A stretch of 64,000 bases of DNA from the NCBI RefSeq assembly GCF_003018115.1, contig NZ_CP027457.1, one strand, 5' to 3'. Numbering within the stretch: the stretch's first letter is position 1; every line of letters begins with the position of its first letter. The position numbers and the translations under genes were made by a program. Positions 54,893-64,000 of this stretch are shown piece by piece. Source of the stretch: Escherichia coli (lineage in GTDB: Bacteria; Pseudomonadota; Gammaproteobacteria; Enterobacterales; Enterobacteriaceae). The notes below the pieces were generated by a model. The model worked only from the letters and a program-made list of their open reading frames with translations, was not told the DNA's origin and did not search any database.

Positions 54893-54980
54893 GGTGAGGT
54901 GTCCGAGTGGCTGAAGGAGCACGCCTGGAAAGTGTGTATACGGCAACGTATCGGGGGTTCGAATCCCCCCCTCACCGCCA
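54893..54980 (+). tRNA. serX: tRNA-Ser (anticodon GGA), serX-type
   Basis: 88-nt GGTGAGGTGTCCGAGTGGCTGAAGGAGCACGCCTGGAAAGTGTGTATACGGCAACGTATCGGGGGTTCGAATCCCCCCCTCACCGCCA; long variable arm, encoded CCA; adjacent to ghrA. Confidence 0.97.
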
Positions 54981-55129: not shown

Positions 55130-55971
55130 CTATACTGCCAGCATGTCAGGATAGTGTTTTGCGATAATATCATTCAGTCTGTCAACCAGTTCTGGTTTTC
55201 TGAACGTGATATGCGCGGAGCCCTTCTTAAAGTATCTGATGCTGAACATCTCATCTTCATAGTCCTCTTTTCCCTGAACAGATTGGATATGGTCATCCAG
55301 ATGAATGGTGATGTTTTCCCGGTTGTCGGGGATCGGTTTGCCGCTGAACAGGTGCAGCATTCTTTCCAGATCGGCAAGTCGATCGGCCTGTTGCCCGGTG
55401 ATAAGATGCCCCCCCACCGGTCCCACCTCACCAGATTGTTGACGATAATTTTACTGCCAAATTTGCAGGGTGAATTGGTTTTGTAATTCCAGCTCAGTCC
55501 CCTGAAAACGTTGATCACCCCTCGCTCAAACACTTCATCTTTGTTCTGGTGCAGTTGTTCAAACGTGCTCAGGATATTCGCTTCGCTGATTTCCGGAAAA
55601 TTATCGTACTCCAGTGACCGGTACCATGTATCACGGGCTTGTGCATCCATTAATGACAGCATCCCTGAACGTTGCATCAGGTCACGCCAGATTTCGCGGT
55701 CAAGGTTGTGGGTGATGGCTTTCATTGCGGTTTCCGGTTTCTCCATGAGCCAGCAGCCACAGCGAAAATCCTGTTTCATGGCCCAGTCCAGTGCGGTTTT
55801 ACCTCCGATGCTTTCCGCCAGCACCGAGATTTCTGCCAGTTGCCGGATAAGCGTGTCGATTTGCAGCAGTGTACTTTTTCGTACAGCCAGAATGTGGCGG
55901 ATACTGGTTGAGCAGATAACGTCCGTATGCCCGTTGACAACTTCCAGACGAGAGGCTGTGATATCAGACAT
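55130..55971 (-). pseudogene. uncharacterized island protein split by a -1 frameshift at a G7 tract (265-aa ORF 55174-55971 plus 98-aa ORF 55130-55426)
   Basis: Two overlapping same-strand ORFs switch frame at GGGGGGG (plus-strand C7, 55409-55415); an 8-G tract would give one ~330-aa protein; family not recognised. Confidence 0.6.
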
Positions 55972-55982
55972 AATCGATTATA

Positions 55983-57403
55983 TGAACGCATCCCGTTTGC
56001 AAAGGCATCCATTGTTCTGACATCGACGGTAGGTTGCAGCTTTATATCCGGCTTTATTGCAGCCCGGAAGCTGCGAGCCCCTATGTAATTCGCCGACTCA
56101 CGCCTCATTTCCTCAGCGGGCTTTAGGCCCAATCGATTATCCAGGTTTAGTGAGTCACGGTCTTACCTGTCTTTGTCATCACGCTGGCTGCCAGAGCAAC
56201 CTTTCTGCATTCACCCTTTTGTAAAGAGTTTATGTTTATCGGTATCAGCGATTAATCAGGCCTGATACTGACATGATTTTTGTCGTATTTACGTCCGTGA
56301 GCGGCTATTGCCCACACCGTTCGCGCCAGCTTGTTTGCCATTGCGACGATTGCCACGCTGGCCGGACGACGCTTTTTCAGTTCGGTTATCCATGGACCAG
56401 GTTCTTTGGTCAGTAATGCTGCCGCCCTTGCACCATGAATAAACAGGGTTCGCAGATATTTATCACCACGTTTGCTTATTCCCAGCAGGCGGATTTTTCC
56501 TCCTGAGCCTGTCTGTCTGGGCACCAGACCGATAAACGCGGCGAATTCCCGTCCCGACTTAAAGGCGGAGGCGTCTCCCATCGTGGCAACGGCAGCGGTG
56601 GCGATTAACGGCCCCACGCCTGGGATGTTCAGTAACCGCTGACAGGTTTCATTCTGTCTGGCTACCGCCTGCAACTGCTTCTCAATGTGGTCAAGATGTT
56701 CATCAAGTTCAGTAATTCGCTGATATTGTTCATCCAGCATGTTTATCAGGTAGAGCGGTAGCCGCTCCTTCAGACGCTCCAGGGCTTCCGGCACCTCCTT
56801 CGCCAAAGCAGCACGCCCCTTGTGCGTCGTTTCACCAAATTCCAGCAAGAGACCGTGAAGCGCGTTTATTTGTGCTGTCCTGAACTTCACCAGTTGCTGG
56901 CGCATTCGGTGTAACCCCAGCGTAGCCTGTTGCTCCTCGCTTTTAACGGCGACGGATTTTACCGGCTGCTGAACCGCCAGCCAGATGGCTCGGGCGTCCA
57001 TCACATCGTTTTTATTTCCCATCACGAATGCTTTGACGAACCGGCCTTTGAGTAATCTGACCTTATGTCCCAGTTTCTGAAGCTCACGCGCCCAGTGATG
57101 AGAACCCCCACAGGCCTCCATGCCGATAAGGCAGGGTTCACGGTTGCTGAAATATTCAAGGAATTTCTCACGCTTAACCTGCTTATCGATAATCTCTCCG
57201 GTATGTTCATCAACGAAATGCACCTGCATAAGATGTTTTGCAATATCAACCCCGACAGGGATATATTTCATGGTGTGGATCCTCCAGTCTGTTGGGAGCG
57301 AAACGCATCCCGTTGGGCACGATGATGCCGGAAATCTGCGGGGATCCACACTCATCTACTTAATCCCCGAGCGGCTCATTTCATAATGTTGGGATGCGTT
57401 CAT
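55983..57403 (-). mobile_element. IS110/IS1111-family insertion sequence (~1.42 kb)
   Basis: DEDD-type IS110-family transposase ORF bounded by a perfect 13-bp inverted repeat ATGAACGCATCCC (55983-55995) / GGGATGCGTTCAT (57391-57403); exact termini uncertain. Confidence 0.75.
56252..57271 (-). CDS. IS110-family transposase/recombinase
   Basis: ORF 56252-57355; start at MKYIPVGVDIAKHLMQVHFVDEHTGEI... typical IS110-family N-terminus, C-terminal LGISKRGDKYLRTLFIHGARAA region. Confidence 0.88.
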   Translation of the reverse strand: MKYIPVGVDIAKHLMQVHFVDEHTGEIIDKQVKREKFLEYFSNREPCLIGMEACGGSHHWARELQKLGHKVRLLKGRFVKAFVMGNKNDVMDARAIWLAVQQPVKSVAVKSEEQQATLGLHRMRQQLVKFRTAQINALHGLLLEFGETTHKGRAALAKEVPEALERLKERLPLYLINMLDEQYQRITELDEHLDHIEKQLQAVARQNETCQRLLNIPGVGPLIATAAVATMGDASAFKSGREFAAFIGLVPRQTGSGGKIRLLGISKRGDKYLRTLFIHGARAAALLTKEPGPWITELKKRRPASVAIVAMANKLARTVWAIAAHGRKYDKNHVSIRPD

Positions 57404-57693: not shown

Positions 57694-58182
57694 TTACCAG
57701 TCGAAAGTGGGTAAATCCGGCAGACATTCGGCGCTGGCATCCAGATGAATGAGACTGACGCCATAACGTCGGGTAAGTGTGACAACCAGACGGCGGAACG
57801 TTTTTGACAGCCCCAGGCGTTTAAGCCGCAGAACCGGGTATGACCACGCACCGGTACGTAACAGATATCCGCTACCTGTGAAATGAATCCATTCTGATTC
57901 GCCAGTGTCATTCGTCTGATGTGACAGCGAATACAACCAGGCGTTGTCCTTTGCCGTGATATGCGCGGTACTGCAGCGTATGCCGGTCAGGGCAGCAAAT
58001 GGTGGCGTGCGCTCTGCTGATGTCCGGTCAGATTCATCAACAACACGAAGGGAGTAGCCATTGTCGCAGGCCACGTTAATCAGTTCAGCGAGATTAACAC
58101 CATCGACGTCAACGACAATTCGTCCCATGTTCAGCGCCTGCACGTTAACGCTGTCTGCTTCCAGCGTCAGGGCCAGTTTCAT
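57694..58182 (-). CDS. conserved island protein downstream of CbtA (DUF5983-like)
   Basis: 162-aa ORF MKLALTLEADSVNVQALNMGRIVVDVDGVNLAELINVACDNGYSLRVVD...; start overlaps cbtA stop (ATGA). Confidence 0.65.
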   Translation of the reverse strand: MKLALTLEADSVNVQALNMGRIVVDVDGVNLAELINVACDNGYSLRVVDESDRTSAERTPPFAALTGIRCSTAHITAKDNAWLYSLSHQTNDTGESEWIHFTGSGYLLRTGAWSYPVLRLKRLGLSKTFRRLVVTLTRRYGVSLIHLDASAECLPDLPTFDW

Positions 58183-58556
58183 TGTTTCGCCCCCGGATGT
58201 TTACCCAGGGTAATGTTATTTACCGTTCTGTAATTGTCGCGGGTCATCAGGCCTGTCGCCCGGCGGGCCCGGAGGATATCGATGCTGTTTATTAACTGAG
58301 AGTGGGTACAGGTGCTGAATCCCGGCTGGTCGGTACGCACCAGTGCGTATTTTTCCACGAGAAAGTTCACCGCATCGCACAGTGAAATGCCGGCCTCAAT
58401 ATGCTGCTCAATCACACGTTCATCAGCGAACGGTGTGTCATTCAGCGTAAGGCCGTAGTGCTGGTCCAGTAGTCGGGAGAGCAGTGTCTGCCAGATGGTG
58501 ACGGGAGACGGGCTGCGCGATGCCTCCCGTACGTGTGTATCGGGTAATGTTTTCAT
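58179..58556 (-). CDS. cbtA: type IV toxin-antitoxin system toxin, CbtA/YeeV family (cytoskeleton-targeting)
   Basis: 125-aa ORF MKTLPDTHVREASRSPSPVTIWQTLLSRLLDQHYGLTLNDTPFADERVIEQHIEAGISLCDAVNFLVEKYALVRTD... near-identical to remembered YeeV/YkfI/YpjF sequences. Confidence 0.9.
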   Translation of the reverse strand: MKTLPDTHVREASRSPSPVTIWQTLLSRLLDQHYGLTLNDTPFADERVIEQHIEAGISLCDAVNFLVEKYALVRTDQPGFSTCTHSQLINSIDILRARRATGLMTRDNYRTVNNITLGKHPGAKQ

Positions 58557-58645
58557 ACTGAAGATTTTCCTGATATGAGAGATTAAATTTTGAGGAGAGT
58601 GGTGCTGTAGCGCACCGGGCCGGAGCAGACGATTATTTCGGTGGT

Positions 58646-59014
58646 TTACTTTTTCGTTTCTGGCGTCGGATAAACAGCCATATAAACGTAACCACAGCTG
58701 CCGAGGGTGTCGGCTTCGCAGGTCAGCCCTCTGGCATACAGCGTGACGGTATGCTGATGGCTGGGGCTGAGTTCACCGCTGGTGAGCATGAGTTCCAGTT
58801 GTTTCATCAGCAGCGGAAAGGCCTGGTCCAGATGGTACGCATCCGCGTCGCTGAACCGGCCTCTGATACCGGCGCGGTCTGCAAGGTAATGCAACCGGTT
58901 ACCCTCCTGCACCAGACGTGCCCCAAAACAGGGCGTCACGGTGCAGGGTAGCCCCCACCAGGGGCGGTCGTTGTTATCGTCGGGATGCGTTGTCCCGGGG
59001 AGAGTGTCTGACAC
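58646..59014 (-). CDS. cbeA: type IV toxin-antitoxin system antitoxin, CbeA/YeeU family
   Basis: 122-aa ORF MSDTLPGTTHPDDNNDRPWWGLPCTVTPCFGARLVQEGNRLHYLADRAGIRG... Confidence 0.9.
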   Translation of the reverse strand: MSDTLPGTTHPDDNNDRPWWGLPCTVTPCFGARLVQEGNRLHYLADRAGIRGRFSDADAYHLDQAFPLLMKQLELMLTSGELSPSHQHTVTLYARGLTCEADTLGSCGYVYMAVYPTPETKK

Positions 59015-59093
59015 GATAAAATCCTCACAGAAAATTGGTTAAGAATGGTCCGGTGGTGGCGATAATTCTGCTCTTCTGAATGCCCTTCCAGAC

Positions 59094-59315
59094 TCAGTTC
59101 AGGGTGACGCTCATCAGCCGGACATACGGACCGAAACTGTCCTTACGGCGTTCTGCAAACACAGCCAGCACACCGGGAATATCCTGCACTTCACGGCCGG
59201 TATATGTATCCGTGCTACCGTGCCAGCGGTATTTACCGGTACAGAACGGAAAAAGACGGGATGCAGGATGCTGACGGTGAATACGCATGGCTTCACCACG
59301 GGGGATGATTTTCAT
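59094..59315 (-). CDS. DUF987 protein, YeeT-like
   Basis: 73-aa ORF MKIIPRGEAMRIHRQHPASRLFPFCTGKYRWHGSTDTYTGREVQDIPGVLAVFAERRKDSFGPYVRLMSVTLN. Confidence 0.85.
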   Translation of the reverse strand: MKIIPRGEAMRIHRQHPASRLFPFCTGKYRWHGSTDTYTGREVQDIPGVLAVFAERRKDSFGPYVRLMSVTLN

Positions 59316-59401
59316 GAGAATAGTCCTCCTGAATGTGAAAGTAAGAAACAGCTGAGAAAGAGAAACTGAAGTGATATGAAGGTGATTGTGACGGTGACGG
59401 G

Positions 59402-59893
59402 TTAAAGCAGTCCGTGTTCCGCAAAGGAGAAAACCTGGCTGCCACCGACTATCAGATGGTCCGGCACCCGGATATCCACCAGAGCCAGTGCCTGTACCAG
59501 ACGTTCCGTGATAAGGCGGTCTGCCTTGCTGGGTGTGACTTCACCGGACGGGTGATTGTGCGCCAGCACCACGGCAGCGGCATTGTGATACAGGGCGCGT
59601 TTAATCACTTCCCGGGGATGGACTTCCGTGCGGTTGATGGTGCCGGTGAAGAGGGTTTCACCGGCAATCAGCTGATTCTGGTTGTTCAGATACAGCACCC
59701 GGAATTCTTCACGCTCCAGTCCCGCCATGTTAAGAATCAGCCATTCCCGTGCCGCACGGGTGGAGGTGAAGGCCACGCCGGGTTCATGAAGATGGCGGTC
59801 CAGGGTTTTCAGGGCCCGCAGAATGAGACTGCGCTCGCCGGGCGTCATCTCTCCGGGCAGAAAGGAAAGCTGCTGCATTGTTCCTGCCTCCAT
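59402..59893 (-). CDS. RadC-like JAB-domain protein (YeeS/YfjY/YkfG family)
   Basis: 163-aa ORF with JAMM-like motif AVVLAHNHPSGEVTPSKAD; start may be internal Met (MQQLSFLPGEM). Confidence 0.85.
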   Translation of the reverse strand: MEAGTMQQLSFLPGEMTPGERSLILRALKTLDRHLHEPGVAFTSTRAAREWLILNMAGLEREEFRVLYLNNQNQLIAGETLFTGTINRTEVHPREVIKRALYHNAAAVVLAHNHPSGEVTPSKADRLITERLVQALALVDIRVPDHLIVGGSQVFSFAEHGLL

Positions 59894-60379
59894 TCAGTCG
59901 ATGATGCGCATAATGGCGCTGCATTCCGGATGCTGCAGGGCGTAATCCCGCAGCCGGTAATAATGGACCGTCATGGCATAACACTCCGTACGACAGGCAT
60001 GATGACTGTACGTCATCAGACAGGCAGCAATGCCGGCGGCTTCCGGACTCATTTCAGCGCGGTTACCGTTCATGGCATTGAACAGTACCCATTTTTCGTC
60101 ATCATCGTCATCCGGTTCAGGTGCCATAAATGCCCCGCCGTTGTTCAGGGTGTACAGATTCCAGATACCACCGCAGTAGTCTTCGCACAGACGGTCCATC
60201 CAGCCGAAAACACGGGGCTCCAGGGTCACCCACTGTGGAATGAGGCCAAAATGCTGCGGCCAGAAGCTGATGCGCTGTTCATCAGGGACTATGGTGGCAA
60301 CCAGCTGAGGCTGGTCATTCCCTGATGCAGCGGTTACGGAAACAGAAGGAGTGGTGGAATTATGCAAGACGGTTGTCAT
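59894..60379 (-). CDS. antirestriction protein (KlcA/ArdB-like; YfjX/YafX family)
   Basis: 161-aa ORF with acidic patch PEPDDDDDEKW; immediately upstream of RadC-like gene as in CP4 prophage remnants. Confidence 0.8.
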   Translation of the reverse strand: MTTVLHNSTTPSVSVTAASGNDQPQLVATIVPDEQRISFWPQHFGLIPQWVTLEPRVFGWMDRLCEDYCGGIWNLYTLNNGGAFMAPEPDDDDDEKWVLFNAMNGNRAEMSPEAAGIAACLMTYSHHACRTECYAMTVHYYRLRDYALQHPECSAIMRIID

Positions 60380-60470
60380 GAGATGATTCCTTATAAAAAG
60401 TAAATGAATGGAAGAAACCCCGGGGGAAGGGACAGACGTGAGTCAGAACTGCGCTTTCAGGGAAAAGGCA

Positions 60471-61289
60471 TCAGCACATGCTCTCCAGCAGCGTTTCAGC
60501 CATCACCCACAATGCGCGGTTGAGCTTAATATCGGTGTCGATGCTGTGAATGGCCCGGGTATGGATACGTTTTCCTCTGGCACTGCGACCGGAAATCCCG
60601 CCTTTCAGCATATTCTCCTGGATGGTCTGATAAGCACTCCACAGGTCCTTACCGTAATCCTCCCGGCGTCGTGGCGTCAGAATGTCGGCGGTGGTGACGG
60701 GCTGATGTTCGTCACCATAACGGTAAGTCAGTGCCGCCTGTGCCAGCGCCTGGCGTGCCGGTGGCGGCAGAATCAGCGACTGCATGGCATCACGTTTCTC
60801 TTCAATCCGGTCAAAAACCCCCACCACCTCGTAAGCACCTTCAATCACCCTGTCCACCACGTTTCCCCGGTGTGGCACCCGGACTTCTCCCAGCGACTGA
60901 CCGCAGACCAGGCCATTGGTGCAGATGGCACGAAAATATCCGGGTAACATCTGGTAGCTGGATGAACCGTCATGGGAGTTGAGCAGAATAATTTCAGGCA
61001 CATGCTGACCGGTTATCTGTCCGGCCCGCCGCAGACGCAGCATATGTTTGGTATATTCCCGGCGGCTCTGGTCGCGCACACGGGTCTGGCAGGCGAAGAA
61101 CGGCTGAAAGCCTTCCCGCTGCAGATTTTCCAGGACGGTGATGGTGGGAATGTACGCATACCGTTCACTGCGGGAGGTGTGCCGGTCTTCTCCAAAAATA
61201 CTCGGGACGTGGTACATCAGTTCTTCGCGTGTCAGTGGGCGCTCCCGACGGATCTGATTTACATGACCAAAACGACTGGCTAATTGCAT
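60471..61289 (-). CDS. DUF932-family protein (YafZ/YfjQ-like)
   Basis: 272-aa ORF MQLASRFGHVNQIRRERPLTREELMYHVPSIFGEDRHTSRSERYAYIPTITVLENLQREGFQPFFACQ...; family name from memory. Confidence 0.7.
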   Translation of the reverse strand: MQLASRFGHVNQIRRERPLTREELMYHVPSIFGEDRHTSRSERYAYIPTITVLENLQREGFQPFFACQTRVRDQSRREYTKHMLRLRRAGQITGQHVPEIILLNSHDGSSSYQMLPGYFRAICTNGLVCGQSLGEVRVPHRGNVVDRVIEGAYEVVGVFDRIEEKRDAMQSLILPPPARQALAQAALTYRYGDEHQPVTTADILTPRRREDYGKDLWSAYQTIQENMLKGGISGRSARGKRIHTRAIHSIDTDIKLNRALWVMAETLLESMC

Positions 61290-61329
61290 ACTTTGCTCCT
61301 TATGAATGAGTTAGCGGTATAAACGAAAA

Positions 61330-61357
61330 GGCCGCGTCTCCCGGAGAAGACGCGGCC
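61330..61357 (-). terminator. rho-independent terminator downstream of the DUF905-like gene
   Basis: Perfect 10-bp stem GGCCGCGTCT/AGACGCGGCC; minus strand then reads TTTTCGTTT. Confidence 0.65.
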
Positions 61358-61378
61358 TGATGGATGAAATGAAGACGT

Positions 61379-61671
61379 TTATTGCCTGAGAATTCCCTCA
61401 CTGGCGAGATACGGATTTAGCTGTTTTCCGGCATCAGATTCAAAATTCCAGCACCGCCAGCGCAACTGACCTTCAGCGTTGCGGATCACCAGACGAAAAT
61501 GCGTACCCGGGTCATCCTTGATAAACACATTGCGGTAAGCGGTTATGACAGCAACCGCCTGCCCGTATGAGAAAGATCCTTCAGCCAGGACATACTCTGT
61601 GTGTAACCCGGCATATCTGGTTTCTCCTGATAAATAGCCTCTGCCACAACGTATGGCAGAGGCTGAAGCAT
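61379..61671 (-). pseudogene. DUF905/YkfF-like small gene with apparent frameshift
   Basis: Frame A from ATG ([42 protein letters not shown]) shifts to frame B (...[60 protein letters not shown]), which carries the remembered HFRLVxR...WRxWNFExDAG signature. Confidence 0.55.
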
Positions 61672-61688: not shown

Positions 61689-62144
61689 TCAGTTAACATT
61701 TTTTCCGGAAACGGTAATCAGCAGTGGATGGTAGTCCTGGGGATCGAAAACCGATAACGGCAGACTGACACGATGGCCGTTACTTTCTTCAGTTGCTTTA
61801 ATGATTTCGGTTGTGGCGACATTTTCCACGCACTCCGTTTCCAGAAATGCGTCTGTGGTTCGCGTGGCATTACTGTCACCAAAGGCTTCCGTTTCCATTT
61901 TTCTGGTCACCAGCGTCTGACCATATTTGTCTTTGAGTTGCAGAGTGATGGTGAGGGGGCCAAATCCTTCATAGTTTCCGCCATTATCCAGCCGGAACTG
62001 GTAGGCACAAATATTTCCCGGGAGCCATATCGTATCTGTATTGCGTATACTGATGTAACGTTGATCCTGTGCCCGGAGTGGGGCAGACCACGTTAACCCC
62101 AGAATGAAGGCGGTAATCATGCAGGTTTTGAACAGGTGAATCAT
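61689..62144 (-). CDS. secreted/periplasmic protein of unknown function
   Basis: 151-aa ORF with signal peptide MIHLFKTCMITAFILGLTWSAPLRA|QDQ; no recognisable motif. Confidence 0.6.
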   Translation of the reverse strand: MIHLFKTCMITAFILGLTWSAPLRAQDQRYISIRNTDTIWLPGNICAYQFRLDNGGNYEGFGPLTITLQLKDKYGQTLVTRKMETEAFGDSNATRTTDAFLETECVENVATTEIIKATEESNGHRVSLPLSVFDPQDYHPLLITVSGKNVN

Positions 62145-62219: not shown

Positions 62220-63941
62220 TTATGCCGGTAACTCCGGGGGTAATGCTTCTTCCAGTCGGTTAACCATCTTGCCGAGATGGGATACATCATATTCCATGAC
62301 GGGGCGTTGCCTGATGATACTGACCACCAGTGGTTTGATTAACATATTGGTCGCGGCCCGTTGTTGTATACCGGCGGCGAAAATGATCTCCAGAGCATTC
62401 TGATCGATAACACGGGCCAGATTCGCGTTCAGATTTTCAATCTCATGTCCGGTCAGCAGGAAACTGCCGGCAAGCCATGTCACCTGCTCCTGAATCATTG
62501 CCAGAATTTTGACGCGATCTTCTTCAACCAGCGCTCCGGCAATTTTTCCTGATACAGCGGAGGCAATCATTCCCCCCAGAACACCGCCAACCACACGTCC
62601 TGTCAGTGCACCAAATGGTCCCAGTGGACTGAACAATATCCCGCCCGCCACTGACCCGACAGCACCACCTGCCACACCGGAAGATGCCACGGCAAGATTC
62701 CTGATGAACTGCGCACCGGAGATCCGTCCCCGCAACATTTTGATCATGTCAGGGCCGGTTGTGACAGCGACCAGTGCCAGAGATGTCACCAGCGTACCCT
62801 TCATCACTTTGTTCAGGGCACTGATATTTCCTGCACCGGTCCCCTTCTGAAGCGCCTGCCGGACAGTCGGGCTGGCCGTCGAAAAATCAATATGCTTCAG
62901 CATACCCTGAACAACACTGAGCCGGTGAAGTTGCTGGGTTGTGACGTAGACAGCCAGTGTGCGGGTGAAGGTTTTTCCTGCCTGGACAGCAGCTGTCTGC
63001 AGGGCAGCATCGCGATCGCCGGTGCTGAGCCAGAAGACCGATGCCGTCAGGGCAAAACTGATCCCTCCGGCCGCCAGACTGACAACCGCCCCCTCGGCAA
63101 TATCATAAGTGACCGATTCGATGGTCCCGAACCGGGTGATATTACGGGCCTGGGTATAAGTCAGATGTCCCCGACGAATCAGCCGGGACGCTTCTGCGGG
63201 ATCGGTTACACCGGGTACTTTACCTTCGCGGATCTTATTCTTCATGGTTTCCACAGCGCCGGCATACTGATCACGGGGGACTTCCAGTTGCATGGGACCA
63301 TGATTTCCCATGTAACGATACTGTCCGTTTTGTCCGTCGAATGCCGCACCGACGCTACGGGCTGCAGTTGAACAATATTTCGTCTGGATTTCTGTTCCGC
63401 TGACCAGTCTGTCTGCTCCATTTCTGGCATTATTATCACCGAGGATCCGTGCGTTTTTCAGACGGACTCTGTCGACAATATGGTTTCCCCGTTCAGCGGC
63501 AAACCCATGTCCCTGCCCTCCGGAAGCAAACATTTTCTCATTTGTACTCCAGGTTTCCGGCAGTTTCATGAGAATCAGACCATTCGCCGTTGCATCGGAA
63601 ATAAAACCGGTGTAAGAACGTTCATAAATGTCCTGACACAGTGTTTCTGTTTCGCGACAAAGAGAGGAGCAGTACCATTCCGGATCCGGCTTATGATTTT
63701 CCGGGGCATGATGTACTTCTGTCAGCCCGCAGGAGGCACAGATACGAAGCTCATCCACGTGGTGGAATGATACAAAACGGCGGCCTTCTGAAAAGGGGTA
63801 CCAGTCACCGCCGTCCAGGCAACGATCGAGAAAATCGTCATTCGCTTCCGGTGATAAATTCAGGCGGTTCCGGAAGAGGGTTTTCAGTTCATCAGGGGTA
63901 AATGACAGGCTCTCTCTCAGCTTTTCGTTGAAACCCGCCAT
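62220..63941 (-). CDS. large uncharacterized protein with N-terminal Cys cluster and C-terminal glycine-zipper membrane region (possibly YeeR/YfjW-like); reading frame stays open to the window end
   Basis: 573-aa ORF from first in-window ATG; frame continues without stop through 63942-64000, so true start may lie outside; GGAVGSVAGGILFSPLGPFGALTGRVVGGVLGGMIASAVSG segment. Confidence 0.65.
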   Translation of the reverse strand: MAGFNEKLRESLSFTPDELKTLFRNRLNLSPEANDDFLDRCLDGGDWYPFSEGRRFVSFHHVDELRICASCGLTEVHHAPENHKPDPEWYCSSLCRETETLCQDIYERSYTGFISDATANGLILMKLPETWSTNEKMFASGGQGHGFAAERGNHIVDRVRLKNARILGDNNARNGADRLVSGTEIQTKYCSTAARSVGAAFDGQNGQYRYMGNHGPMQLEVPRDQYAGAVETMKNKIREGKVPGVTDPAEASRLIRRGHLTYTQARNITRFGTIESVTYDIAEGAVVSLAAGGISFALTASVFWLSTGDRDAALQTAAVQAGKTFTRTLAVYVTTQQLHRLSVVQGMLKHIDFSTASPTVRQALQKGTGAGNISALNKVMKGTLVTSLALVAVTTGPDMIKMLRGRISGAQFIRNLAVASSGVAGGAVGSVAGGILFSPLGPFGALTGRVVGGVLGGMIASAVSGKIAGALVEEDRVKILAMIQEQVTWLAGSFLLTGHEIENLNANLARVIDQNALEIIFAAGIQQRAATNMLIKPLVVSIIRQRPVMEYDVSHLGKMVNRLEEALPPELPA

Positions 63942-64000
63942 GTTTCTTTCATACCAGGCATTGTCCAGTAGCCAGTTTCCGTCTGCCAGTTCAAATTCCC

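Follow-up and report, generated by a model that had tools for sequence, protein, structure and literature searches.

The minus-strand open reading frame (ORF) at the end of a 64,000-nucleotide stretch of Escherichia coli DNA (the window) is, as judged from sequence comparison, the C-terminal two thirds of full-length YeeR, an 838-aa protein in which a domain of predicted PD-(D/E)xK (restriction-endonuclease-like) fold lies between two membrane modules. We propose, at slightly less than even confidence, that YeeR is an integral inner-membrane, single-gene defence protein that keeps this restriction-endonuclease-fold module at the cytoplasmic face of the membrane and acts on phage or plasmid DNA entering the cell. 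As an entity yeeR is not new: it is a known gene of the published agn43-yeeR-irmA operon, and its family is already present in Pfam as PF27347, YeeR_C. The literature searched contains neither a description of intact YeeR as a nuclease-fold module between two membrane modules, of which K-12 lacks half, nor one of the core as a unit of wide occurrence, joined to exchangeable N-termini and found in neighbourhoods rich in defence genes.

Intact YeeR and its K-12 remnant

Counted from its first in-window ATG, the ORF (62220..63941) comprises 573 aa, and its frame stays open to base 63998 at the window edge, reading ...EFELADGNWLLDNAWYERN-MAGFNEK. The initial annotation, made from the letters of the window, described this frame correctly and suspected a longer protein, as is indeed the case. 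The chromosome of E. coli 2014C-4135 (NZ_CP027310.1) contains the window sequence with 100% identity, and there the coding sequence of 2517 nt (locus L001 12721-15237) encodes the 838-aa protein WP_096148373.1, labelled 'hypothetical protein'; a near-identical copy in strain E7 is annotated as 'YeeR family protein'. The true ATG (L001 15237) is preceded by a GGAG ribosome-binding site and lies outside the window, 795 nt past the first in-window ATG. The latter encodes the internal Met266, and the 573-aa ORF corresponds to residues 266-838. Among 413 YeeR homologues, the full-length ones are of 820-850 aa and share 30-67% identity. Their spread across gamma- and beta-proteobacteria (Enterobacterales, Pseudomonas, Shewanella, Methylomonas, Herbaspirillum, Cupriavidus, Dyella and others) shows that a real gene is concerned, not a chance ORF.

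Over residues 1-507, the protein is 95% identical to YeeR of K-12 (480/507 residues). The K-12 gene (b2001, 'inner membrane protein YeeR', CP4-44; L020 6780-8312) is the same gene and is likewise located between agn43 (flu) and irmA or the RadC/CbtA block of the island, but it is a deletion remnant. Its product has 510 aa, the match stops at residue 507, inside the nuclease-fold domain, and the gene abuts yeeS. The entire C-terminal membrane and glycine-zipper module is thus missing from the K-12 form, whereas the window form is intact and has the length typical of the family. Truncation of K-12 yeeR by deletion has been published (PMC6480617, PMC4807369). Since the remnant is devoid of the C-terminal module, data on K-12 yeeR say little about the intact protein; the remnant cannot reveal the function, which may explain why yeeR has stayed uncharacterised. 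The description of the window ORF as an uncharacterised island protein is therefore apt, but its grouping with YeeR/YfjW-type proteins needs correction: the gene is yeeR itself, and YfjW shows no detectable similarity to it. YfjW (CP4-57) was rejected as a relative, the best BLASTP segment (23.5 bits, E = 0.031) being confined to transmembrane (TM) helices.

A core of predicted nuclease fold with invariant candidate catalytic residues

Conservation was assessed on an alignment of 44 orthologues (A1) and on a second one of 49 relatives with other architectures (A3). The structure was predicted with AlphaFold2 (AF2), which gave a mean predicted local distance difference test (pLDDT) score of 78 for the full-length protein and of 80-97 in the core of a domain-only model. 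The core alpha/beta domain is the best conserved part of the protein, with 63% mean identity across the family, and in the predicted structure it has the alpha-beta-beta-beta-alpha-beta order of the PD-(D/E)xK superfamily. Four residues, E415, D442, Q451 and K453, are invariant in both alignments. E415 is placed in helix a1, D442 at the start of strand b2 and the Q451-x-K453 pair in strand b3, so that they coincide with the active-site positions of the fold, a Gln standing in place of the second acidic residue. The sequence of E. coli Mrr has the same D...QxK spacing as the YeeR core. In Mrr the D...QxK residues are catalytic, and the Gln variant is known from Mrr-type enzymes.

The core is preceded by two further soluble modules. 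Residues ~205-323, of which the first part is encoded outside the window, show the predicted secondary structure a1-b1-a2-a3-b2-b3 twice over, and the sole high-probability local matches found with Foldseek (probability 0.97-0.98) are tandem winged-helix proteins such as ESCRT-II, STIV F93, SelB and BlaI. These matches are no more than suggestive of two winged-helix units. Next comes a Cys cluster, for which the initial annotation had noted the motifs CASCGLTEVHH and CSSLCRETETLC. Both are present, and the cluster is conserved: C333, C336, C356, C360 and C367 are invariant in the 44 homologues. Other family members have weak zinc-ribbon Pfam matches (DZR, Zn_Ribbon_1, Zn_ribbon_3) N-terminal to the core. 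Hence the generic 'sensor' first envisaged for the soluble part gives way to two putative winged-helix units, a zinc ribbon and a domain of PD-(D/E)xK fold whose catalytic-type residues are invariant. This combination argues for an action on nucleic acid, instead of or besides pore formation.

Two membrane modules flank the soluble region

Residues 1-205, encoded outside the window, form six hydrophobic helices. The distribution of charges in their connecting loops over the 44 sequences, with Lys/Arg-poor segments at 23-26, 83-92 and 158-163 and Lys/Arg-rich ones at 51-61, 117-133 and 187-205, suggests by the positive-inside rule that both ends of this module face inside. With such a topology of the six TM helices, the soluble region would be cytoplasmic. 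In agreement with this placement, the core domain of many relatives stands at the very start of the protein, preceded by neither a TM helix nor a signal peptide. The soluble region that the initial annotation put at the N-terminus does exist, but it is the central part of the protein, after the six hydrophobic helices. Because of these helices, YeeR would be a constitutive membrane protein rather than a soluble protein with an insertable tail.

The second membrane module, residues 546-737, contains four hydrophobic helices, at 545-570, 640-668, 681-713 and 707-733. The first has a Kyte-Doolittle value of 1.86 in E. coli (1.73 as family average) and sits ~140 residues past the HGxAAE motif in most relatives; the following stretch, residues 574-680, carries ~9 Lys/Arg. 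The last two form a glycine-zipper hairpin in which G694, G713, G717 and G721 are invariant in the 44 sequences and G690, G691, G698, G699, G706 and G718 are at least 90% conserved. The Gly/Ala-rich GxxxG segment recognised initially is thus real and conserved, but not ~100 residues long: the zipper itself covers ~57 residues (681-737) within a hydrophobic stretch of ~190 (545-737). Weak matches of the zipper were obtained with C19orf12-like proteins and with the hydrophobic region of a tape-measure protein family (phrog_167), the latter being the only match among PHROGs. Relatives match DUF1269 and Gly-zipper_Omp weakly, and the C-terminus of LeoBC was matched as well. The C-terminal tail is predicted to be helical (738-831, pLDDT ~60-86) and is less conserved, with 38% mean identity across the family. 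The coordinates of all these parts are given in Table 1.

Table 1. In-window parts of yeeR and the adjoining irmA gene, with window coordinates
Feature	Coordinates	Strand	Details
yeeR, in-window portion	62220..64000	minus	codons for residues 247-838 of 838, and stop
Winged-helix region (putative)	63768..63998	minus	end of unit 1 (residues 247-258) and whole unit 2 (~259-323); unit 1 begins outside the window at ~residue 205
Zinc-ribbon-like Cys cluster	63621..63749	minus	residues 330-372: C333-x2-C336 ... C356-x3-C360 ... C367
Core alpha/beta domain, predicted PD-(D/E)xK (restriction-endonuclease-like) fold	63102..63554	minus	residues 395-545
Putative catalytic signature	63378..63494	minus	E415 63492-63494; D442 63411-63413; Q451-T-K453 63378-63386
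First C-terminal hydrophobic helix	63018..63101	minus	residues 546-573
Amphipathic helices and weaker second hydrophobic helix (~640-668)	62697..63017	minus	residues 574-680
Glycine-zipper helical hairpin	62526..62696	minus	residues 681-737; LAVASSGVAGGAVGSVAGGILFSPLGPFGALTGRVVGGVLGGMIASAVSGKIAGALV
C-terminal helical domain	62223..62525	minus	residues 738-838
irmA (IrmA family protein, 151 aa)	61689..62144	minus	next gene downstream; context, not part of YeeR

Proposed mechanism and a pore-forming alternative

In the mechanism that we favour, the winged-helix and zinc modules would bind nucleic acid, and the PD-(D/E)xK site would cleave DNA appearing at the membrane during injection or transfer. 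Confinement to the membrane would keep the enzyme off the chromosome, by analogy with the unrelated protein SNIPE, for which experiments have shown this (see below). The glycine-zipper helices would serve for anchoring or oligomerisation and may be in contact with the entry channel.

The main, though unlikely, competitor is an abortive-infection pore former, a refinement of the idea in the initial annotation. The cytoplasmic module would only sense a phage cue, such as foreign DNA or a nucleotide signal, the zipper would oligomerise, and the resulting pore would depolarise the membrane and kill the infected cell. Indeed, the zipper is conserved as strictly as the nuclease-fold site, it always accompanies the core, and its GxxxG periodicity is maintained across all architectures of the family. 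The weak matches to C19orf12, DUF1269, Gly-zipper_Omp, the LeoBC C-terminus and a tape-measure segment point in the same direction, the Gln replacing the second acidic residue would fit a non-catalytic sensor, and the defence-island context suits a pore former as well as it suits a nuclease. On the other hand, invariant E, D, QxK, H, N and R at canonical active-site positions in more than 90 diverse sequences argue for chemistry, not binding alone. Furthermore, with six N-terminal TM helices the protein is already polytopic, and the zipper may be a mere anchor or oligomerisation device. The occurrence of a match in about half of E. coli genomes, the co-transcription with agn43 and the lack of a partner antitoxin also speak against a lethal pore. 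None of the results of this analysis favours abortive infection in particular. The combination of sensor and pore proposed at first is therefore right only in part: the zipper and the Cys cluster are real, but the nuclease-fold domain and the N-terminal TM helices do not belong to that picture.

A widespread family with interchangeable N-termini

All 120 of the homologues listed with precomputed domain matches carry PF27347, including cluster representatives 96-99% identical to the window protein, and short fragments consisting of the core domain alone carry it as well. A protein search with the domain profile gave mostly short fragments and contributed little. When a profile of the core (residues 380-565) was used, 1049 clusters at 50% identity were collected among 1.84 billion representatives. 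A pattern scan of one genome per species (100,044 species) yielded 301 confirmed relatives, distributed among Proteobacteria (including Campylobacterota-type genera), many Firmicutes, Lentisphaerae, Cyanobacteria, Fusobacteria, Riflebacteria, Parachlamydiales and others.

The constant unit across the 1049 clusters consists of the nuclease-fold domain, the hydrophobic helix ~140 residues on and the glycine zipper ~300 residues on. What varies is the N-terminus, which can be absent, of the six-TM YeeR type, a ~185-aa domain, Sel1/TPR repeats, a P-loop-like segment or a BnzA-N-like domain. In the last case (protein P0152, residues 5-138), a domain resembling the N-terminus of BnzA from the Bunzi defence system is fused to a YeeR_C protein (E = 8e-21). 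On the Lactococcus plasmid pNCDO184A (L016 9923-10780), a BnzA-N-like gene lies just downstream of a YeeR_C gene (E = 1e-13). These two cases suggest a link by fusion or adjacency between the BnzA-N-like domain and YeeR_C.

A broader view, which we regard as doubtful at present, is that YeeR_C proteins make up a large unrecognised class combining a PD-(D/E)xK fold, a glycine-zipper membrane module and interchangeable N-terminal sensor or anchor domains. Such proteins would intercept foreign DNA at its entry through the inner membrane or, on sensing DNA, cause a membrane lesion. The E. coli gene would be expressed phase-variably together with Ag43, and cells would thus become armed as they switch to aggregation.

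Carriage by phages and plasmids is limited: the gene was found in one INPHARED phage, five IMG/VR contigs and 11 PLSDB records. Seven of the latter are Escherichia records, four of 4.6-4.9 Mb and three of 1.0-1.4 Mb, and records so large probably represent chromosomes, whole or in part, that were deposited as plasmids. Genuine plasmid copies are few, namely those on a 229-kb Klebsiella plasmid and on a 75-kb E. coli plasmid fragment. The rarity of yeeR in INPHARED, IMG/VR and PLSDB thus gives no support to an origin from phages or plasmids. A 4-kb contig from an Oxalobacter sp. metagenome-assembled genome (JAHAYL010000019.1, L026) carries a YeeR 99% identical to that of E. coli, flanked by an autotransporter beta-domain and IrmA; mis-binning of an E. 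coli contig is the most likely explanation.

Genomic neighbourhoods of yeeR homologues

The neighbourhoods of 76 loci from different species were compared, and no neighbour family is common to all of them. The largest cluster, WYL-WCX regulators, is present at 10/76 loci, and at 17 YeeR-type loci each Pfam family listed among the immediate neighbours was seen once. The only recurrent neighbours are subfamily-specific, namely the WYL-WCX and Xre regulators and small ORFs in Firmicutes. The absence of a common neighbour indicates that yeeR is a self-contained gene.

Several loci of homologues are rich in defence genes. An Enterobacteriaceae orthologue (67% identity) has a WYL regulator, PDC-M09A (E = 3e-120) and PDC-M09B (E = 5e-214) directly upstream and DndBCDE downstream, and the order M09A-M09B-YeeR is repeated in two Enterobacter genomes and one Serratia genome. 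The gene of the relative P0145 is bordered by Gabija GajA and GajB on one side and by HEC-05 (GmrSD-like) on the other; an AlwI-type restriction enzyme is encoded close by. The Herbaspirillum orthologue adjoins Azaca ZacABC within an integrase-bearing element; HicAB and a TIR effector occur near the Methylomonas gene, and RES-Xre next to the Pseudomonas one. On the Lactococcus dairy plasmid, a WYL regulator is found upstream, a BnzA-N-like protein downstream and an Abi (abortive infection) gene 6 kb off. Such neighbourhoods follow the pattern of defence genes, which is supportive, though not decisive. The defence-type role suggested in the initial annotation is accordingly plausible, in view of the Gabija, Azaca, Dnd, TIR, toxin-antitoxin and WYL/WCX neighbours and of the PDC-M09B matches described below.

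Two recurrent gene arrangements were also observed. In CP4-type islands of Enterobacter, Serratia and Citrobacter-like genomes (L009 4761-10523; L027, L034, L037), the WYL, PDC-M09A, PDC-M09B and YeeR genes follow each other on the same strand with gaps of 0-40 nt, and PDC-M09A/B with the YeeR orthologue may be an extended three-gene form of this PADLOC candidate system. In a Firmicutes subfamily of ~634 aa (L044-L100), a small same-strand ORF of ~113-133 aa lies just upstream (two clusters, of 8 and 4 loci) and another of ~120 aa just downstream (9 loci). These small ORFs have no clear Pfam match and may encode subfamily-specific partners.

The agn43-yeeR-irmA operon and an envelope-related alternative

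In NZ_CP027310.1 and strain E7, yeeR is annotated downstream of agn43 and upstream of an IrmA-family gene. The three genes form a single OxyR-repressed transcript in the uropathogenic strains EC958 and CFT073 (PMC4807369), and both OxyR/Dam control and H-NS/Hha repression of the operon have been published (PMC4807369, PMC6480617). YeeR was reported to be dispensable for IrmA release, and its function, as stated there, 'remains to be elucidated' (PMC4807369). In the enteroaggregative strain 042, irmA is driven by its own promoter within the yeeR-irmA spacer. The cluster is duplicated and enriched in pathogenic strains, and a 2.5-kb irmA/yeeR query is matched by sequence in 2607/5426 complete E. 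coli genomes, that is, about half. Since yeeR is co-transcribed with the phase-variable agn43, it would be expressed in Ag43-ON cells. The 120-nt agn43-yeeR spacer, outside the window, contains a perfect 11-bp inverted repeat with a 3-nt loop (L001 15300-15345; GGTCCCGGTCA-TCA-TGACCGGGACC), not followed by a T-run. The repeat could act as attenuator, RNA-processing site or repetitive extragenic palindrome (REP)-like element and so set the level of yeeR/irmA relative to agn43.

Its place in this operon could also mean that YeeR is an envelope or colonisation factor, an inner-membrane accessory involved in aggregation, biofilm or envelope state, with an incidental nuclease-like fold. The co-transcription and shared regulation (PMC4807369, PMC6480617), the duplication and enrichment in pathogenic strains and the wide occurrence in E. 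coli all agree with this explanation, which we nevertheless find improbable. The same length and architecture are found in orthologues from Pseudomonas, Methylomonas, Herbaspirillum, Dyella, Vibrio, Bordetella and others, whose neighbours are unrelated and include no autotransporter, and in other Enterobacterales the gene follows PDC-M09A/B, not Ag43. Moreover, YeeR is not needed for IrmA release and irmA of strain 042 has a promoter of its own. K-12, which is devoid of functional yeeR, still makes functional Ag43, and this too counts against an envelope function.

The yeeR island

The yeeR island is of the CP4 type and is inserted at a tRNA-Ser gene (54893-54980) beside ghrA and csg genes. 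Its first genes are damaged: a DUF4942 gene (55130-55971) is frameshifted, and an IS110-family transposase is inserted at 56252-57271. The standard CP4-type block downstream of irmA (57694-61588) includes DUF905, DUF932, an anti-restriction protein, RadC and DUF987, together with a toxin-antitoxin pair (CbtA toxin, 58179-58556; CbeA/YeeU antitoxin, 58646-59014) and DUF5983 (57694-58182). Beyond the window, the far end of the island (L001 18850-26501) includes a YeeP-like GTPase that weakly matches the dynamin-like LeoA and LeoBC. An integrase fragment, an anti-phage dGTPase and a type I restriction-modification system are also found there. With the far-end genes, the same E. coli island thus encodes CbtA/CbeA, the anti-restriction gene, the dGTPase and the restriction-modification system, and is itself a defence-gene-bearing element.

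It is very improbable that yeeR is a toxin-like or selfish element, that is, a membrane-bound nuclease or pore toxin serving competition or addiction, with a fold kin to CdiA-CT nuclease toxins and immunity encoded elsewhere, or else a decaying, functionless passenger gene: the island is indeed full of toxin-antitoxin and anti-restriction genes and yeeR is often disrupted by deletions or insertion sequences (K-12, CFT073, ET729), but the protein has a polytopic N-terminus and is devoid of any domain for secretion or delivery, no immunity gene is conserved next to yeeR, and the strong conservation of its length, active-site residues and glycines across phyla argues against decay.

Weighing a DNA-targeting role

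Several results weigh against the proposal that YeeR attacks incoming DNA from the membrane. A Pfam-A scan, even at E <= 10, detected no named PD-(D/E)xK family, C19orf12 being the sole and weak match; NCBIfam gave no match for either the 573-aa or the 838-aa form, and PDB searches by sequence and by profile gave nothing relevant (L7Ae at E ~0.3 is noise). Profile comparison with hhalign did not align the core with the corresponding domain of E. coli Mrr. The Foldseek E-values of the winged-helix matches are 0.1-0.5, which is not significant, and the whole YeeR model has no match with a significant E-value in PDB. The Gln found instead of the acidic residue of (D/E)xK could mean that the domain is a binding module, not an enzyme. 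AF2 confidence is low in the glycine zipper, and prediction does not settle the topology of the C-terminal half, including residues 571-640. As regards context, the association with defence genes is anecdotal, based on ~8 contexts and the neighbour census with no background statistic, and some loci are ordinary: in Dyella, for example, the flanking genes encode a GGDEF protein and a TonB receptor. It is also unusual for a defence gene to share its operon with genes for an adhesin and for a secreted host-interaction protein. PADLOC holds no validated system matching YeeR, and the sole published functional statement on the protein is its dispensability for IrmA release (PMC4807369). In the literature searched, no paper links yeeR to phage defence or to nuclease function.

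The analysis nevertheless yields a testable proposal for a very common E. coli gene, co-transcribed with the Ag43 adhesin and the vaccine candidate IrmA, by naming the candidate catalytic residues E415, D442, Q451 and K453, the putative zinc ligands, the zipper positions and the predicted topology. Should the nuclease reading be true, a function would be provided for a family of more than 1000 sequence clusters over many phyla; should a DNA-triggered pore be true, it would couple sensor and effector in a new way. In both cases, the answer would have a bearing on the presence of yeeR in an adhesin operon.

Comparison with known systems

The closest defence-related match is to PDC-M09, an unvalidated PADLOC candidate defence system whose name is not mentioned in the literature searched. 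YeeR matches two PDC-M09B profiles weakly but colinearly, over the core and the hydrophobic region (19 bits, E = 8e-5; 18 bits, E = 2.4e-4), and the relative P0145 does so at E = 2.4e-7. Pairwise alignment shows the motifs HGxxAE and AD..[IV].G..[IV]Q[ST]K[FY] in both proteins, which also share a core of similar size and a Gly-rich hydrophobic C-terminal half. A profile-profile comparison by hhalign, with 213 core and 114 M09B sequences, aligned the b2-b4 region (E = 4e-5, probability 69%); that of the core profile with a single PDC-M09B sequence was not significant. However, a true PDC-M09B scores 709 bits on its own profile, compared with 19 bits for YeeR, and PDC-M09B proteins have no PF27347 match and are devoid of the six-TM, winged-helix and zinc-ribbon N-terminal half. 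PDC-M09A is absent among the eight proteins neighbouring E. coli yeeR. Membership of YeeR in PDC-M09 was rejected on account of the weak match and the missing M09A partner, and sequence similarity suggests that YeeR and PDC-M09B are distant relatives, not one family. M09AB was found in 7/5426 E. coli genomes, against 2607 matching the irmA/yeeR query; being so much rarer, M09AB is not something on which YeeR depends. In at least one of these seven genomes, that of strain ET729 (L106 9328-9474), IS1 has cut down to 48 codons the YeeR-type gene expected behind M09B.

As for the membrane module, YeeR has the conserved GxxxGxxxG hydrophobic helices of glycine-zipper Abi and pore-forming effectors. 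Repeated GxxxG helices also occur in C19orf12-like proteins, DUF1269 and tape-measure segments. The matches to these are weak and composition-driven, and none of these families has an attached nuclease-fold domain. With respect to the soluble modules, Mrr-type type IV restriction enzymes combine a winged-helix N-domain with a PD-(D/E)xK catalytic domain of the D...QxK variant. Unlike YeeR, Mrr is soluble; there is no profile-profile similarity between them, and YeeR has no Mrr_cat Pfam match.

The mechanism proposed for YeeR is best compared with that of SNIPE, a single-gene, membrane-bound nuclease that cleaves phage DNA during injection, associates with tape-measure proteins and is prevented from self-cleavage by its confinement to the membrane (bioRxiv 10.1101/2025.11.03.685801). 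The likeness concerns the proposed mechanism only, a nuclease and a DNA-binding domain at the cytoplasmic face of the inner membrane. SNIPE is composed of one TM helix, DUF4041 and GIY-YIG, neither of which was matched in the Pfam scan of YeeR, whereas YeeR would combine ~ten hydrophobic helices with winged-helix, zinc-ribbon and PD-(D/E)xK modules. If YeeR is indeed a membrane-embedded nuclease acting on incoming DNA, it would thus constitute a second, structurally independent example of the SNIPE strategy.

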